NCBI RefSeq assembly: GCF_053078305.1
Contig: NZ_CP166879.1
Reading direction: 5' to 3' (one strand)
Length of the DNA stretch: 64,000 nt
Shown: one piece after another, positions 3-15,267 of the stretch
Position numbering within the stretch: position 1 is the first letter of the stretch
How the letters are laid out: each line of letters starts with the position of its first letter
The notes under the pieces: generated by a model
The model's database searches: none
Seen by the model: only the letters and a program-made list of their open reading frames with translations
Told to the model about the DNA's origin: nothing
Made by a program: the position numbers and the translations under genes

Positions 3-2879
3 AATCCTGACACTTATTTCCAGTCTCGCGAAGCCACCAACCCATGGTACAACGCGGTCTATGACCATGTTGAACAGGCGATGAATGATTTCGCTGCCGC
101 GACAGGTCGTCAGTATCAGCCGTTTGAATATTACGGGCATCCGCAAGCGGAACGGGTGATTATCCTGATGGGCTCTGCCATTGGTACCTGTGAAGAAGTG
201 GTTGATGAATTGCTAACCCGTGGCGAAAAAGTTGGCGTGCTGAAAGTTCGTCTGTACCGTCCCTTCTCCGCCAAACACTTGCTGCAAGCTCTGCCGGGAT
301 CCGTACGCAGCGTGGCGGTACTGGACAGAACCAAAGAACCCGGTGCCCAGGCAGAACCGCTCTATCTGGATGTAATGACCGCACTGGCAGAAGCCTTTAA
401 TAATGGCGAGCGCGAAACTCTGCCCCGTGTCATTGGTGGGCGCTATGGTCTTTCATCCAAAGAATTTGGCCCGGACTGTGTACTGGCGGTATTTGCCGAG
501 CTCAACGCGGCTAAACCGAAAGCGCGCTTTACGGTTGGTATTTACGATGATGTGACCAATCTGTCACTGCCGTTGCCGGAAAACACCCTGCCAAACTCGG
601 CGAAACTGGAAGCCTTGTTTTATGGGCTTGGTAGTGATGGCAGCGTTTCCGCGACCAAAAACAATATCAAGATTATCGGTAATTCCACGCCGTGGTACGC
701 ACAGGGCTATTTTGTTTACGACTCCAAAAAGGCGGGCGGCCTGACGGTTTCTCACCTTCGAGTGAGCGAACAGCCGATTCGTTCCGCTTATCTCATTTCC
801 CAGGCTGATTTTGTTGGCTGCCACCAGTTGCAGTTTATCGATAAATATCAGATGGCTGAGCGTTTAAAACCTGGCGGCATTTTCCTGCTCAACACGCCGT
901 ACAGCGCAGATGAAGTGTGGTCGCGCTTGCCGCAGGAAGTTCAGGCCGTGCTAAATCAGAAAAAAGCGCGCTTCTATGTGATTAACGCGGCGAAAATCGC
1001 CCGCGAATGTGGCCTGGCGGCCCGTATTAATACCGTCATGCAGATGGCTTTTTTCCATCTGACGCAAATTCTGCCTGGCGATAGCGCCCTCGCAGAATTG
1101 CAGGGTGCGATTGCCAAAAGTTACAGTAGCAAAGGTCAGGATCTGGTGGAACGCAACTGGCAGGCTCTGGCGCTGGCGCGTGAATCCGTAGAAGAAGTTC
1201 CGTTGCAGCCGGTTAATCCGCACAGCGCCAATCGACCGCCAGTGGTTTCCGATGCCGCCCCTGATTTCGTGAAAACCGTAACCGCGGCGATGCTCGCCGG
1301 GCTTGGTGATGCCCTCCCCGTTTCGGCGCTGCCGCCAGACGGCACCTGGCCGATGGGCACTACACGCTGGGAAAAACGCAATATCGCCGAAGAGATCCCC
1401 ATCTGGAAAGAGGAACTCTGTACCCAATGTAACCACTGTGTTGCCGCTTGCCCACACTCAGCTATTCGCGCAAAAGTGGTACCGCCTGAAGCGATGGAAA
1501 ACGCCCCTGCCAGCCTGCATTCGCTGGATGTGAAATCGCGTGATATGCGCGGGCAGAAATATGTCTTGCAGGTGGCTCCGGAAGATTGCACCGGTTGTAA
1601 CCTGTGCGTCGAAGTTTGCCCGGCGAAAGACCGTCAGAATCCAGAGATTAAAGCCATCAATATGATGTCGCGCCTGGAACATGTCGAAGAAGAGAAAATC
1701 AATTACGATTTCTTCCTCAACCTGCCAGAAATCGACCGTAGCAAACTGGAACGTATTGATATTCGTACATCGCAGCTGATTACACCGCTGTTTGAATATT
1801 CCGGTGCTTGCTCCGGTTGTGGCGAGACGCCGTATATTAAATTGCTGACTCAGCTCTATGGCGACCGGATGTTGATCGCTAACGCCACCGGCTGTTCTTC
1901 AATTTATGGCGGTAACCTGCCCTCTACACCGTATACCACCGATGCCAACGGTCGTGGGCCGGCATGGGCGAACTCTCTATTTGAAGATAATGCCGAATTT
2001 GGCCTTGGTTTCCGCCTGACGGTCGATCAACACCGTGTCCGCGTGCTGCGTCTGCTGGATCAATTTGCCGATAAAATCCCGGCGGAATTACTGACGGCGT
2101 TGAAATCAGACGCTACGCCAGAGGTTCGTCGAGAACAGGTCGCAGCTTTACGCCAGCAACTCAACGATGTTGCCGAAGCACATGAACTGCTGCGTGACGC
2201 AGATGCACTGGTAGAAAAATCAATCTGGCTGATTGGTGGCGACGGCTGGGCTTACGATATCGGCTTTGGCGGTCTGGATCATGTATTGAGTTTGACGGAA
2301 AACGTCAACATTCTGGTGCTGGATACGCAATGCTATTCCAACACCGGTGGTCAGGCGTCGAAAGCGACACCGCTGGGTGCAGTAACTAAATTTGGCGAGC
2401 ACGGCAAACGTAAAGCGCGTAAAGATCTTGGCGTCAGTATGATGATGTACGGTCATGTTTATGTGGCGCAGATTTCTCTCGGCGCGCAACTGAACCAGAC
2501 GGTGAAAGCGATTCAGGAAGCGGAAGCGTATCCGGGACCATCGCTGATCATCGCTTATAGCCCATGTGAAGAGCATGGTTACGATCTGGCACTCAGCCAT
2601 GACCAGATGCGCCAACTCACAGCTACCGGCTTCTGGCCGCTATATCGCTTCGATCCGCGTCGTGCCGATGAAGGCAAACTGCCGCTGGCGCTGGATTCAC
2701 GCCCGCCGTCAGAAGCACTGGAAGAAACGTTACTTCACGAGCAACGTTTCCGTCGTCTGAATTCGCAGCAGCCAGAAGTGGCAGAACAGTTATGGAAAGA
2801 TGCTGCAGCTGATTTGCAAAAACGCTATGACTTCCTGGCACAAATGGCCGGAAAAGCGGAAAAAAGCAACACCGATTAA
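3..2879 (+). CDS. ydbK: Pyruvate:flavodoxin/ferredoxin oxidoreductase, C-terminal ~959 codons; 5-prime end lies upstream of the window
   Basis: Reading frame is open from position 3 with no stop before the first ATG at 81. Two 4Fe-4S ferredoxin motifs (CTQCNHCVAACP, CTGCNLCVEVCP) and a TPP-binding GDGW region are present. Stop at 2879. Confidence 0.9.
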   Translation, partial: NPDTYFQSREATNPWYNAVYDHVEQAMNDFAAATGRQYQPFEYYGHPQAERVIILMGSAIGTCEEVVDELLTRGEKVGVLKVRLYRPFSAKHLLQALPGSVRSVAVLDRTKEPGAQAEPLYLDVMTALAEAFNNGERETLPRVIGGRYGLSSKEFGPDCVLAVFAELNAAKPKARFTVGIYDDVTNLSLPLPENTLPNSAKLEALFYGLGSDGSVSATKNNIKIIGNSTPWYAQGYFVYDSKKAGGLTVSHLRVSEQPIRSAYLISQADFVGCHQLQFIDKYQMAERLKPGGIFLLNTPYSADEVWSRLPQEVQAVLNQKKARFYVINAAKIARECGLAARINTVMQMAFFHLTQILPGDSALAELQGAIAKSYSSKGQDLVERNWQALALARESVEEVPLQPVNPHSANRPPVVSDAAPDFVKTVTAAMLAGLGDALPVSALPPDGTWPMGTTRWEKRNIAEEIPIWKEELCTQCNHCVAACPHSAIRAKVVPPEAMENAPASLHSLDVKSRDMRGQKYVLQVAPEDCTGCNLCVEVCPAKDRQNPEIKAINMMSRLEHVEEEKINYDFFLNLPEIDRSKLERIDIRTSQLITPLFEYSGACSGCGETPYIKLLTQLYGDRMLIANATGCSSIYGGNLPSTPYTTDANGRGPAWANSLFEDNAEFGLGFRLTVDQHRVRVLRLLDQFADKIPAELLTALKSDATPEVRREQVAALRQQLNDVAEAHELLRDADALVEKSIWLIGGDGWAYDIGFGGLDHVLSLTENVNILVLDTQCYSNTGGQASKATPLGAVTKFGEHGKRKARKDLGVSMMMYGHVYVAQISLGAQLNQTVKAIQEAEAYPGPSLIIAYSPCEEHGYDLALSHDQMRQLTATGFWPLYRFDPRRADEGKLPLALDSRPPSEALEETLLHEQRFRRLNSQQPEVAEQLWKDAAADLQKRYDFLAQMAGKAEKSNTD

Positions 2880-2908
2880 ATGCTCTGGATAAGGATTATC
2901 CAATTCTA

Positions 2909-3017
2909 AAAAAAAGCCCGGACGACTGTTCGGGCTTGTCTTTTTATATGTTGGAAAATCAGTGGCAATGCAATGGCCCAACAGAAAATAAAATCTGTGA
3001 CAATAAAGGCATATAAC
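2909..3017 (-). ncRNA. micC: MicC small regulatory RNA, divergent from ompN
   Basis: Minus-strand sequence GTTATATGCCTTTATTGTCACAGATTTTATTTTCTGTTGGGCC... matches the MicC sequence as I recall it. It ends in the hairpin GCCCGAACAGTCGTCCGGGC plus a U-run. Confidence 0.8.
2916..2935. terminator. Bidirectional intrinsic terminator shared by ydbK (plus) and micC (minus)
   Basis: GC-rich inverted repeat gcccg-N10-cgggc flanked by an A-run (2908-2915) and a T-rich run (2938-2944). Confidence 0.7.
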
Positions 3018-3244
3018 CCGCGCAGAATAACGTATAGAAAATTAAAAGTATAATTTTTATTTTGTATGTATTATCTTCGATACATTCACCAGACTTATTA
3101 TCATTTCAGAGGAATTATTTGATTAAGGTTTTACTTAAGGCGTAACAAATGATATTTATCGGCTAACTGAACTTCTCCTTTAGGATGTTTTCACTCCCCG
3201 AAATGGGGATAAAAGGCAAATAAAATAACTAAAGGATTTATTCA

Positions 3245-7826: not shown

Positions 7827-7948
7827 AAAAAAAAGCCGACTCATCAAAGTCGGCGTCGTACGAATCAATTGTGCTATGCAGTAATTCAAAAAAGGAAGTA
7901 AGACAATATGGAGCGCAACGCCCATCGCTTGACGTTGCATTCACCTGC
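7827..7948 (-). ncRNA. fnrS: FnrS small RNA (FNR-activated)
   Basis: Minus-strand GCAGGTGAATGCAACGTCAAGCGATGGGCGTTGCGCTCCATATTGTCTTACTTCC... ending in hairpin GCCGACTTTGATGAGTCGGC plus U8, matching FnrS as I recall it. Confidence 0.8.
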
Positions 7949-10534: not shown

Positions 10535-11098
10535 TCAACGACTGCGCTTAGCGTGGCGCTCCCAGTTTTCTTGCTTCGCCTGCGCCGTTTTACGTAGTGC
10601 GACGTAACACGCCCCGCTGCCGCCATGATGCGGTAGCGCGGTGCAATATGCCTGAACATCATCAAATTCGGTCAGCCAGCGCGCCACATAGCTGCGGACA
10701 ATATTGGCATGCGATTTATCATCCCGCCCTTTACCATGAATAATCAGCACGTTACGCAAACCATCCGCCAGGGCTTGTTGAATAAAACTGAACACCATTT
10801 TGCGGCACTCTTCCACCGGCTGGCGCAAAAGATTCAGGCTCGCCTGTTGCGGATATTTACCACTGCGCAGCTTATCCAGCACCCCATGTTGCAACCCTTC
10901 TCGCCGAAACTCCAGCGGCTGACTTAGTGGGATAATGTCGAGAAATCCGGTAGTGAGGAAATTATCAAGCTGCAGCGTGTCGATACGCTGCGGCGCACGT
11001 TGGTTACGCGTTGGATGCCAGTGGACATCGGTAGCACGTTTCAGCGGCTGGACATCTTCCATGGCGTCAAGAAACAGCGATTTGTCGTCAAGGTTCAT
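10535..11098 (-). CDS. smrA: Smr-domain DNA endonuclease SmrA (YdaL), 187 aa
   Basis: Smr domain near the N-terminus (GKGRDDKSHANIVRSYVARWL). Length matches K-12. Confidence 0.85.
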   Translation of the reverse strand: MNLDDKSLFLDAMEDVQPLKRATDVHWHPTRNQRAPQRIDTLQLDNFLTTGFLDIIPLSQPLEFRREGLQHGVLDKLRSGKYPQQASLNLLRQPVEECRKMVFSFIQQALADGLRNVLIIHGKGRDDKSHANIVRSYVARWLTEFDDVQAYCTALPHHGGSGACYVALRKTAQAKQENWERHAKRSR

Positions 11099-11265
11099 GT
11101 TACATCCTCCCGCAATTAAGAGCGCGATATGATAACCAGACCGGGTCGGTCCAACAACGTATTACCCAAAATTCCAGTAATAAGTTCCAAATATTGCCGA
11201 TATTTTAAGCAAAATGCTTATGCATGATTATTCATTCACGATATTAATAATGTAACTTATATTTT

Positions 11266-11280
11266 CGTGAAATCTGTCAC
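11266..11280. promoter_or_regulatory. CRP-like site upstream of mcaS
   Basis: cGTGA-aatctg-TCACt resembles the CRP consensus TGTGA-N6-TCACA and sits about 50 bp upstream of the mcaS 5-prime end. Confidence 0.3.
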
Positions 11281-11325
11281 TGAAGAAAATTGGCAACTAA
11301 AGGTTAAAACCGTTATAACACAGTC

Positions 11326-11419
11326 ACCGGCGCAGAGGAGACAATGCCGGATTTAAGACGCGGATGCACTGCTGTGTGTACTGTAGAGTCTGGCGGATGT
11401 CGACAGACTCTATTTTTTT
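11326..11419 (+). ncRNA. mcaS: McaS (IsrA) small RNA
   Basis: ACCGGCGCAGAGGAGACAATGCCGGATTTAAGACGCGGATGCACTGCTGTGTGTACTGTAGAGTCTGGCGGATGTCGACAGACTCTATTTTTTT matches McaS as I recall it. The terminator hairpin and T7 run end 8 nt from the convergent abgR stop. Confidence 0.8.
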
Positions 11420-11427
11420 ATGCAGTT

Positions 11428-12336
11428 TTAACTTTGCAGATAGCCGCATTCTCGCCGGAATTGCGTGATTAATGACGCGGTCAGTGGTGTCTGGCGACTA
11501 TCACGCCGCTGAATCAAATAATAGGCCGCTTTCGGTAAAATTTCGCTAACCGGCAACATCACCAGCCCCTGTCCGTGCAAGGGATCGCAGCCCATTTCTT
11601 CAGGCAGTATGCTGAGAAAATCGCTTTTTGCCACCAGACTGATACAGGCTGAGAACGTCTCGCAGACTACACCGACCTGTGGCGTTTGCGCCTGATCGTC
11701 AAGCAATTCACTCAACTGTTTGTAGTAGCTGCCGTGTGGCGTCGGCATTGTCCAGCTGTAATCCAGTAACTGTTTGATCGAACGGGCACCAATGGCGGGG
11801 TGTCCCGGGCGGCAAAAGATCGCGAATTGCTTTTCCAGTAATTTCTCAAAAGTAAATTCGTGGTCGTACGGTCCCTGATAATAGGTATTGATGGTGAAAT
11901 CCAATTCTCCCTGACGCAATTCATTAATCATCGACACCAGTTGCCCTTCCATAATGCGTACTTTTACCTGCGGATGCTGCTGATGAAAACGAGATATGAC
12001 AGCTGGCATCAGACTGCGGGAAATACTGGCCCCCATGCCGATATTAATCTGCCCTGCCAGTTGCCCTTGTCGTTGGCGAATATCCTCTTGGGCTGCGCGC
12101 AGCTCTTCAAGAATAAGACTGGCGTGCTGATAAAAACTTTCACCGGCATCAGTTAACGTCACGCCTTTACTACGGCGAAAAAAGAGTTGCGCCGCTAACC
12201 CTTCTTCCAGCTCCTGAATAGATTTACTCAGTGCCGGTTGCGACATATTCAACATTCGGCTCGCTCCGCGAATGCTGCCCTGACGAGCCACTTCAACAAA
12301 AGCCCGAATTTGATGAATTTTTACCTGAAAAGCCAT
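11428..12336 (-). CDS. abgR: LysR-family transcriptional regulator AbgR, 302 aa
   Basis: N-terminal LysR HTH (IRGASRMLNMSQPALSKSIQELE). Divergent from abgA. Confidence 0.9.
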   Translation of the reverse strand: MAFQVKIHQIRAFVEVARQGSIRGASRMLNMSQPALSKSIQELEEGLAAQLFFRRSKGVTLTDAGESFYQHASLILEELRAAQEDIRQRQGQLAGQINIGMGASISRSLMPAVISRFHQQHPQVKVRIMEGQLVSMINELRQGELDFTINTYYQGPYDHEFTFEKLLEKQFAIFCRPGHPAIGARSIKQLLDYSWTMPTPHGSYYKQLSELLDDQAQTPQVGVVCETFSACISLVAKSDFLSILPEEMGCDPLHGQGLVMLPVSEILPKAAYYLIQRRDSRQTPLTASLITQFRRECGYLQS

Positions 12337-12511
12337 GACGCCACCGATAACCGTTATTTATCAGACCAAAGAAACTGGCATCTACTTTAATGCAGATGAT
12401 TGTGTCAGGGTAATTTATGAACGGTTAAAACTGTGAAAAATCAGTTAGTGATAAGTAAAAACTATCGCTACGTGAACCGGGTCACACTTTTTACTGATGA
12501 CGGGAAAGGTT

Positions 12512-13822
12512 ATGGAGTCTTTGAATCAATTTGTTAATTCGCTTGCCCCAAAATTATCGCACTGGCGACGTGATTTTCATCACTATGCAGAGTCTGGCTG
12601 GGTGGAATTCCGCACTGCCACCCTTGTTGCGGAAGAATTGCAGCAGCTCGGCTATTCACTGGCGCTGGGCCGCGAAGTAGTTAATGAAAGTAGCCGGATG
12701 GGACTACCTGATGAACTCACTCTACAACGCGAATTCGAGCGCGCTCGTCAACAGGGTGCGCTAGCACAATGGATTGCGGCTTTTGAAGGTGGTTTCACTG
12801 GTATCGTCGCCACCCTGGATACCGGTCGCCCCGGTCCGGTGATGGCTTTCCGTGTCGATATGGACGCGCTGGATCTCAGTGAAGAGCAGGATGTCAGCCA
12901 TCGCCCCTACCGCGACGGTTTTGCGTCATGTAACGCCGGAATGATGCATGCCTGTGGTCATGATGGGCATACCGCCATTGGGCTTGGGCTGGCGCATACC
13001 CTTAAACAGTTCGAGTCCGGACTACATGGCATCATCAAACTGATTTTTCAACCTGCAGAAGAAGGTACGCGTGGCGCGCGGGCGATGGTCGATGCAGGTG
13101 TAGTGGATGATGTTGATTATTTTACTGCCGTGCACATTGGCACTGGCGTACCTGCGGGCACCGTGGTGTGCGGCAGTGATAATTTTATGGCAACCACCAA
13201 ATTTGACGCGCACTTCACCGGGACCGCCGCTCACGCAGGCGCAAAACCAGAAGACGGTCACAATGCCTTGTTGGCGGCAGCACAAGCAACTCTTGCACTG
13301 CATGCAATCGCCCCGCACAGCGAAGGCGCTTCCAGAGTAAACGTGGGCGTTATGCAGGCAGGAAGCGGTCGTAATGTTGTTCCTGCCTCGGCGTTGCTGA
13401 AAGTGGAAACACGCGGGGCCAGCGACGTCATTAATCAATATGTTTTTGACCGTGCTCAGCAAGCGATTCAGGGCGCAGCAACCATGTATGGTGTCGGCGT
13501 TGAAACTCGTCTGATGGGTGCAGCTACCGCCAGTTCTCCTTCGCCGCAATGGGTCGCATGGTTGCAAAGTCAGGCGGCTCAGGTAGCGGGGGTCAATCAG
13601 GCCATTGAACGTGTTGAAGCGCCTGCGGGTTCCGAAGATGCCACATTAATGATGGCCCGCGTGCAGCAACATCAAGGGCAAGCCTCCTACATGGTGTTTG
13701 GCACACAGCTGGCGGCAGGTCATCACAACGAAAAATTCGATTTTGACGAGCAGGTTCTCGCTATTGCCGTCGAAACGCTGGCGCGCACCGCGCTCAATTT
13801 TCCCTGGACGCGAGGTATCTGA
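12512..13822 (+). CDS. abgA: p-Aminobenzoyl-glutamate hydrolase subunit A (M20 peptidase family), 436 aa
   Basis: M20 metallopeptidase motifs. Start at MESLNQ with GGGAAAGG upstream. The stop overlaps the abgB start (TGATG). Confidence 0.85.
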   Translation: MESLNQFVNSLAPKLSHWRRDFHHYAESGWVEFRTATLVAEELQQLGYSLALGREVVNESSRMGLPDELTLQREFERARQQGALAQWIAAFEGGFTGIVATLDTGRPGPVMAFRVDMDALDLSEEQDVSHRPYRDGFASCNAGMMHACGHDGHTAIGLGLAHTLKQFESGLHGIIKLIFQPAEEGTRGARAMVDAGVVDDVDYFTAVHIGTGVPAGTVVCGSDNFMATTKFDAHFTGTAAHAGAKPEDGHNALLAAAQATLALHAIAPHSEGASRVNVGVMQAGSGRNVVPASALLKVETRGASDVINQYVFDRAQQAIQGAATMYGVGVETRLMGAATASSPSPQWVAWLQSQAAQVAGVNQAIERVEAPAGSEDATLMMARVQQHQGQASYMVFGTQLAAGHHNEKFDFDEQVLAIAVETLARTALNFPWTRGI

Positions 13823-15267
13823 TGCAGGAAATCTATCGTTTTATCGACGATGCGATTGAAGCCGATCGCCAACGTTATACCGATATTGCCGATCAAATCT
13901 GGGATCATCCAGAAACACGTTTTGAAGAGTTCTGGTCAGCGGAGCATCTGGCTTCGGCGCTGGAATCAGCAGGCTTCACCGTTACCCGCAACGTAGGCAA
14001 TATCCCAAATGCCTTTATTGCTTCGTTTGGTCAAGGCAAACCGGTTATCGCCCTGCTGGGAGAATATGACGCCCTGGCAGGTTTAAGTCAGCAAGCTGGT
14101 TGCGCGCAACCTACATCCGTGACGCCCGGTGAGAATGGTCACGGTTGCGGACACAATTTGCTGGGAACCGCCGCCTTTGCCGCTGCAATAGCCGTCAAGA
14201 AATGGCTGGAACAATATGGGCAAGGCGGCACGGTGCGCTTTTATGGTTGTCCTGGCGAAGAAGGCGGCTCGGGTAAAACGTTCATGGTCCGCGAGGGGGT
14301 ATTTGATGATGTGGATGCGGCACTCACCTGGCACCCGGAAGCCTTTGCCGGTATGTTCAATACCCGTACGCTGGCAAACATTCAGGCATCATGGCGCTTT
14401 AAAGGGATCGCAGCACATGCCGCGAATTCCCCTCATTTGGGACGCAGCGCCCTTGATGCCGTAACGTTGATGACCACTGGCACCAACTTCCTCAACGAAC
14501 ATATTATTGAAAAAGCGCGCGTACACTATGCCATCACAAATAGTGGCGGGATCTCGCCCAACGTGGTCCAGGCGCAGGCAGAAGTGCTTTATCTTATCCG
14601 CGCCCCCGAAATGACCGACGTGCAGCATATTTATGATCGAGTCGCCAAAATCGCCGAAGGTGCGGCATTGATGACCGAAACCACGGTTGAATGCCGCTTC
14701 GACAAAGCCTGTTCCAGTTATCTCCCGAATCGCACCTTAGAAAATGCCATGTACCAGGCCCTATCCCATTTTGGTACCCCGGAATGGAACTCCGAAGAAC
14801 TGGCTTTTGCGAAACAAATTCAGGCTACGCTCACCCCCAACGATCGGCAAAACAGTCTGAATAATATCGCCGCAACCGGTGGCGAAAACGGCAAGGCTTT
14901 TGCACTACGTCATCGTGAAACGGTACTGGCCAATGAAGTCGCTCCATATGCCGCCACCGATAACGTGCTTGCGGCATCGACTGATGTCGGCGACGTCAGT
15001 TGGAAACTGCCTGTTGCTCAGTGTTTCAGCCCCTGTTTTGCCGTCGGTACACCGCTACATACGTGGCAACTGGTTAGCCAGGGGCGAACATCTATTGCTC
15101 ATAAAGGAATGCTGCTGGCGGCGAAAACTATGGCAGCAACCACACTCAATCTCTTCATTGATTCAGGGCTATTGCAAGAATGCCAACAAGAGCATCAGCA
15201 AGTTACGGACACGCAACCGTATCACTGCCCTATCTCGAAAAACGTGACACCGTCACCTTTAAAATAA
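13822..15267 (+). CDS. abgB: p-Aminobenzoyl-glutamate hydrolase subunit B (M20 family), 481 aa
   Basis: M20 family sequence. Translationally coupled to abgA. Confidence 0.9.
   Translation: MQEIYRFIDDAIEADRQRYTDIADQIWDHPETRFEEFWSAEHLASALESAGFTVTRNVGNIPNAFIASFGQGKPVIALLGEYDALAGLSQQAGCAQPTSVTPGENGHGCGHNLLGTAAFAAAIAVKKWLEQYGQGGTVRFYGCPGEEGGSGKTFMVREGVFDDVDAALTWHPEAFAGMFNTRTLANIQASWRFKGIAAHAANSPHLGRSALDAVTLMTTGTNFLNEHIIEKARVHYAITNSGGISPNVVQAQAEVLYLIRAPEMTDVQHIYDRVAKIAEGAALMTETTVECRFDKACSSYLPNRTLENAMYQALSHFGTPEWNSEELAFAKQIQATLTPNDRQNSLNNIAATGGENGKAFALRHRETVLANEVAPYAATDNVLAASTDVGDVSWKLPVAQCFSPCFAVGTPLHTWQLVSQGRTSIAHKGMLLAAKTMAATTLNLFIDSGLLQECQQEHQQVTDTQPYHCPISKNVTPSPLK

Follow-up and report, generated by a model that had tools for sequence, protein, structure and literature searches.

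The inverted repeat cGTGAaatctgTCACt at positions 11266-11281 of the window, by which we mean the whole 64,000-nucleotide stretch of DNA that was analysed, is very probably a binding site for cAMP-CRP in the sigma-70 promoter of the small RNA gene mcaS. As no other CRP-like sequence occurs in the region, it can almost certainly be equated with the CRP element published for the mcaS promoter (Thomason et al. 2012, Mol Microbiol 84:17). That mcaS has a CRP element is known, and the link that the site provides between McaS, which regulates motility, curli and PGA biofilm, and cAMP-CRP, hence carbon availability, has been published as well. The dependence on CRP and the CRP element are taken from the literature; the present analysis located the site, found it to be unique in the region and conserved, and showed that its distance from the core promoter is fixed. 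What is added is that Escherichia and the Citrobacter amalonaticus group, though not all enterobacteria that carry mcaS, have kept the element with its spacing, and that the element stays with mcaS despite replacement of the upstream gene. Its atypical placement, centred at -52.5, is the only point of possible interest to specialists in transcription activation.

The small RNA gene was identified by the RF00115 covariance model, which aligned over model positions 1-96 of 96 with a score of 118.4 bits against a threshold of 42, as McaS/IsrA. The 5' end of the K-12 MG1655 gene (b4426, 1405658..1405751, minus strand), at 1405751, aligns to position 11326, and over the mcaS stretch E. coli O157:H7 genomes match the window at 100% identity. 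The flanking genes, smrA (also called ydaL; 10535-11098) and abgR (11428-12336), both lie on the minus strand, and two mechanically called open reading frames of 41 and 42 amino acids overlap mcaS (11324-11449 on the minus and 11344-11472 on the plus strand, respectively). The -10 hexamer of the MG1655 isrA/mcaS promoter has been published as TATAAC, and, according to the supplement of PMC4824073, a change of TATAAC to TATAAT leads to higher levels of IsrA/McaS. TTGGCA was taken as the -35 hexamer on account of this published -10. In the promoter alignment TATAA of the -10 hexamer is invariant, and TGGCA of the -35 hexamer is kept in the Escherichia and Citrobacter promoters. An automated promoter scan of the window did not report the TTGGCA/TATAAC pair, since TATAAC lacks the final T that the scan requires. 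Starts near 11315, in a class II layout, and near 11335, in a class I layout, were considered and rejected, as in both cases no fitting -10-like hexamer was found and the intervening region was unconserved. The features of the promoter are collected in the table.

Table. Features of the mcaS promoter region, in positions of the window; distances are relative to mcaS +1.
Feature	Position	Strand	Remarks
mcaS (isrA/IS061) small RNA gene	11326..11421	+	Rfam RF00115, 118.4 bits; +1 = 11326
-10 hexamer TATAAC	11314..11319	+	published MG1655 -10; 7 nt 5' of +1
-35 hexamer TTGGCA	11290..11295	+	5/6 match to TTGACA; 18-bp spacer to -10; spans -36 to -31
GAAGAAAA tract	11282..11289	.	-44 to -37, between site and -35 hexamer
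CRP-type site, 22-bp frame TTTCGTGAAATCTGTCACTGAA	11263..11284	.	predicted; core GTGA-N6-TCAC at 11267-11280
A/T-rich tract CTTATATTTTC	11256..11266	.	-70 to -60, abuts the site; conserved in Escherichia and Citrobacter

The sequence of the site, c-GTGA-aatctg-TCAC-t, was read directly from the window (local context ...tattttCGTGAaatctgTCACTgaagaaaaTTGGCAac...), with the GTGA half-site at 11267-11270 and the TCAC half-site at 11277-11280. The first-pass annotation had placed a cGTGA-N6-TCACt motif at 11266-11280; the motif is indeed there, and its end has to be moved to 11281, the final t having been dropped. Compared with the consensus TGTGA-N6-TCACA, 8 of the 10 core positions of CGTGA-aatctg-TCACT match, and the two mismatches are the outermost positions. 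The G/C bases of both half-sites are intact, which makes the sequence an inverted repeat of the kind bound by cAMP-CRP. An FNR site (TTGAT-N4-ATCAA) would have T at the discriminating position, and the halves here are GTGA and TCAC. The centre of the site, at 11273.5, is at -52.5 relative to the mcaS start, the core covers -59 to -46 and the 22-bp frame, whose K-12 counterpart is 1405793-1405814, stops at -42, leaving a gap of 5 bp to the -35 hexamer. These distances bear out the earlier estimate that the motif lies about 50 bp from the 5' end of mcaS. The further suggestion that the assigned strand and start gain support from the site carries little weight, because a palindrome holds no strand information and a centre at -52.5, outside the canonical CRP positions, is of no help in fixing the start. 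The strand and start of mcaS rest instead on the Rfam match, the terminator, the -35 and -10 hexamers and the K-12 annotation.

Taken by itself, the match to the CRP consensus is moderate and only modestly above chance. Exact copies of GTGA-N6-TCAC are enriched in the 64-kb window, where four were observed against 0.71 expected, a number reached in none of 100 shuffles, and an exact copy appeared in only 43 of 20,000 shuffles (0.2%) of the 227-bp smrA-mcaS intergenic region. No enrichment was seen with the looser consensus, as TGTGA-N6-TCACA with at most two mismatches was found 20 times in the window against 26 expected. On an approximate position weight matrix (PWM), built from classic CRP sites and used for ranking only, the site scored 8.7 bits and ranked 19th of 63,979 positions in the window. 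This score lies at the low end among the classic sites from which the matrix was built, so that the match is a modest one, and it was equalled in 14% of shuffles of the A/T-rich intergenic region. Within that region the site is the only candidate with three or fewer core mismatches, the next best having four, and no other CRP-like 16-mer with fewer than four core mismatches was found in 11099-11470. The match becomes convincing because it is conserved in orthologous promoters.

Scanning representative genomes with the conserved McaS pattern yielded 13 mcaS loci, from Escherichia species, the Citrobacter amalonaticus group, the Pseudescherichia vulneris clade and Trabulsiella. The comparison set consisted of ten promoters, no two of them identical, of Escherichia and the Citrobacter amalonaticus group. 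All eight core bases of GTGA and TCAC are invariant in these ten promoters, in which four of the six spacer positions vary (aatctg, aattca, aatcaa and aattaa) and the flanks of the site vary as well, one Citrobacter promoter having the better left half TGTGA. All ten measure 53 nt, without gaps, from GTGA to the last base of the -10 hexamer. Between -86 and -1, 31 of the 86 columns are invariant and include all eight core positions, for which a hypergeometric P of 1.5e-4 is illustrative only, as the sequences are related and kinship was ignored. Half-sites that are fixed around a spacer that is free are what would be expected of a cAMP-CRP site, again with kinship left aside. Next to the site, the A/T-rich tract at 11256-11266 is invariant in Escherichia and nearly so in Citrobacter, and it may provide docking DNA for the alpha subunit C-terminal domain (alphaCTD) of RNA polymerase. 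The tract at 11282-11289 is invariant in Escherichia and variable in Citrobacter.

GTGA-N6-TCAC is absent from the mcaS promoters of the clade formed by P. vulneris, ESNIH1 and UBA7338, and from that of Trabulsiella; control by CRP through this element is therefore not universal among carriers of mcaS. At the place that aligns to 11262-11284, the loci of P. vulneris, Escherichia sp. ESNIH1 and UBA7338 (L005, L007 and L014) share a conserved TGAyAAnnTCATTAC, that is, TGA-N5-TCA, and the -10 hexamer of these mcaS homologues is TATACT, unlike TATAAC. The presence of TGA-N5-TCA with TATACT in place of GTGA-N6-TCAC with TATAAC suggests a different regulatory input for mcaS in this clade.

Of 5,426 complete E. 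coli genomes, 5,385 have the mcaS promoter. A divergent allele, with some 88% identity across the locus, occurs in about 1,460 genomes; in it, a co-directional AraC-family gene ends 10 bp 5' of the site and smrA was not found in the 2.5 kb upstream of mcaS. In the AraC-type alleles examined (L001, L002 and E69), there is 100% identity over a 46-nt block that holds the site and the -35 hexamer, and the -35/-10 spacer and stem 1 of McaS differ. As the site is kept where the upstream gene has been replaced, it travels with mcaS and not with smrA. A probable remnant of the AraC-family gene is seen in the window itself, where ATGCATGATTATTCATTCACGATATTAATAATGTAA (11220-11255, plus strand) translates to MHDYSFTILIM*, which aligns in frame and with its stop included to the C-terminus (...MHDYAITRQMI*) of the AraC-family regulator that is intact 5' of mcaS in the approximately 1,460 genomes. 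K-12 and O157-type strains seem, from this alignment, to retain only a C-terminal remnant of the AraC-family gene, and short remnants were also seen beside smrA in E. whittamii and one other Escherichia. In one AraC-type genome (L001, NZ_CP124424.1, locus 2700-3100), the abg operon 3' of mcaS is largely deleted, with an abgR fragment and a partial AbgT pseudogene left before ogt-fnr; mcaS and the CRP site are retained.

Activation of mcaS by cAMP-CRP is stated in papers that cite Thomason et al. 2012, and PMC4824073 marks an 'identified CRP element' in an alignment of isrA promoters (Fig. S2A), citing the same work. The present site and the published element belong to the same gene, the same promoter (with the -10 hexamer TATAAC) and the same regulator, no difference between them is known, and, the region having no other CRP-like sequence, they are almost certainly identical. 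A re-analysis of crp-deletion RNA-seq gives log2 values of -4.3 and -4.5 for mcaS, a loss of about 20-fold. Reviews and McaS papers confirm activation by CRP and give no coordinates for the element, and a full-text literature search for the sequence of the site returned no match. A 2025 preprint reports that predicted sites in small RNA promoters were confirmed by gel shift, a statement made for the group as a whole. The supplement of a Crp ChIP-exo study gives sigma-70 promoters instead of Crp peaks. In a data-mining study, a CRP motif was called inside or just 3' of mcaS; we could not reproduce it, the best match there having four core mismatches. A genomic SELEX study of CRP targets lists abgA<>abgR but not ydaL or isrA. 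The first-pass annotation had considered the site to be consistent with the carbon-source regulation of mcaS, and this view has gained from the analysis, since the site is the sole candidate, its half-sites and its distance to the -10 hexamer are invariant, it is kept when the neighbour is swapped, and crp dependence has been reported.

We propose that, when carbon is poor or limiting, cAMP would rise and a CRP dimer would occupy GTGA-N6-TCAC centred at -52.5, on the side of the helix that also holds RNA polymerase at the TTGGCA and TATAAC hexamers with their 18-bp spacer, and that bound CRP would increase transcription of the 96-nt McaS RNA. How CRP might act from this position deserves comment. 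Genome-wide, CRP motifs cluster at -41.5, -61.5 and -93.5; -52.5 is not among these peaks and lies 11 bp from the first and 9 bp from the second, and hence on the same helical face as both. Class I sites, at -61.5, -72.5, -82.5 or -92.5, have a DNA segment for alphaCTD downstream of the site. The mcaS site is centred elsewhere, and since it ends 5 bp from the -35 hexamer, alphaCTD would not fit between CRP and sigma region 4. Class II sites lie near -41.5 and overlap the -35 element; in mcaS, -42 is the last position of the site and the -35 hexamer begins at -36.

Comparison with known promoters places the mcaS site between these arrangements. At lac P1, whose CRP site TGTGAGTTAGCTCACT is the class I paradigm and is centred at -61.5, there is, as at mcaS, an imperfect palindrome with a TCACT right half, an 18-bp spacer between -35 and -10, and activation by cAMP-CRP. 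The left half is CGTGA in mcaS and TGTGA in lac P1, and the distance from the centre of the site to the -35 hexamer is 16 bp in mcaS against 25 bp in lac P1, so that the mcaS site is 9 bp closer. Class II promoters such as galP1, with CRP at -41.5, share the helical face with mcaS at a distance of 11 bp, and an upstream contact with alphaCTD through activating region 1 is plausible in both. The mcaS site, unlike a class II site, stops short of the -35 region, so that activating regions 2 and 3 would not be expected to touch the alpha N-terminal domain and sigma region 4. In the semi-synthetic promoter series of Gaston and colleagues and of Ushida and Aiba, both dating from 1990, CRP is reported to have given little or no activation from this position. 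At glnAp2, too, CRP sits some 51-52 bp 5' of the start and on the face of RNA polymerase (at -50.5 or -51.5), and alphaCTD protects the DNA just upstream of CRP (PMC1865078). The two promoters differ in that glnAp2 is a sigma-54 promoter repressed by CRP (PMC1865078), whereas mcaS has sigma-70-type hexamers and is activated. By analogy with glnAp2, the most likely contact at mcaS would be one between activating region 1 of CRP and alphaCTD docked on the conserved upstream A/T-rich tract at 11256-11266. If the position of -52.5 is real and CRP acts alone from it, mcaS, in which the arrangement is strictly conserved in two genera, would be a natural case of a non-canonical CRP-RNA polymerase geometry, in which alphaCTD docked upstream on the A/T-rich tract might be the sole contact. 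We put this forward tentatively, and consider it rather unlikely.

The palindrome could, alternatively, be flanked by promoters in back-to-back orientation and serve mainly or also the divergent smrA promoter, with CRP controlling smrA. In the window, in K-12 and in most of the other species found, smrA lies next to mcaS in divergent orientation, and a minus-strand match that resembles a promoter (GTTACA, 18 bp, AATAAT; 11256 to 11227) is situated just left of the site. The match agrees with the consensus at only 9 of 12 positions, however, in A/T-rich DNA where 1.1 such matches are expected by chance. The site is moreover identical in L001, L002 and E69, which represent the approximately 1,460 E. 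coli genomes whose upstream 2.5 kb lacks smrA; its spacing from the mcaS -10 hexamer is constant across genera; and no report of CRP control of smrA was found in the literature searched. Control of smrA through the site is accordingly improbable. It is more doubtful still that the motif is a chance or non-functional match, the CRP dependence of McaS being indirect or exerted through other sequence. Such a reading would account for the absence of enrichment of the loose consensus, for a PWM score met by 14% of shuffles, for the non-canonical position and for the CRP motif called elsewhere by one pipeline. It does not sit easily with conservation that is specific to the half-sites, with varying spacer and flanks at a fixed spacing, with the lack of another candidate within the 227 bp upstream or inside mcaS, or with the CRP element that PMC4824073 marks in the mcaS promoter.

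A different ligand, be it FNR, another member of the CRP/FNR family or an unrelated protein bound to the conserved block TTAACTTATATTTTCGTGAAATCTGTCAC, is the explanation to which we give least credence, and we hold it to be very improbable. That block is longer than a CRP site, and the P. vulneris clade has its conserved TGA-N5-TCA at the equivalent place. Against this, both half-sites carry G at the position that discriminates CRP (GTGA) from FNR (TTGA), and McaS is strongly crp-dependent in the RNA-seq re-analysis. Part of the extended block, furthermore, is the 3' end and stop codon of the AraC-family gene or its remnant, to which the extended conservation can be attributed. Binding of cAMP-CRP in the mcaS promoter thus continues to be the reading that we prefer.

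The window holds other sequences of related interest. All four exact GTGA-N6-TCAC matches, two of which are intergenic, fall within 3 kb, against 0.71 expected per 64 kb. One lies inside the abgA open reading frame (12570-12583), and another at 14129-14142, downstream of abgA, is presumably within abgB. The best CRP-like site of the window, CTACGTGAACCGGGTCACACTT at 12468-12489 (core 12472-12485), has one core mismatch and scores 16.9 bits on the approximate PWM. It is located in the divergent intergenic region of abgR and abgA, about 33 bp 5' of the K-12-type abgA ATG (12512) and about 142 bp from the abgR ATG. In the genomic SELEX study, abgA<>abgR is among the predicted CRP targets. Two other known small RNA genes were identified in the window, both on the minus strand: FnrS at 7831-7948 (134.8 bits) and MicC at 2900-3020 (125.3 bits).
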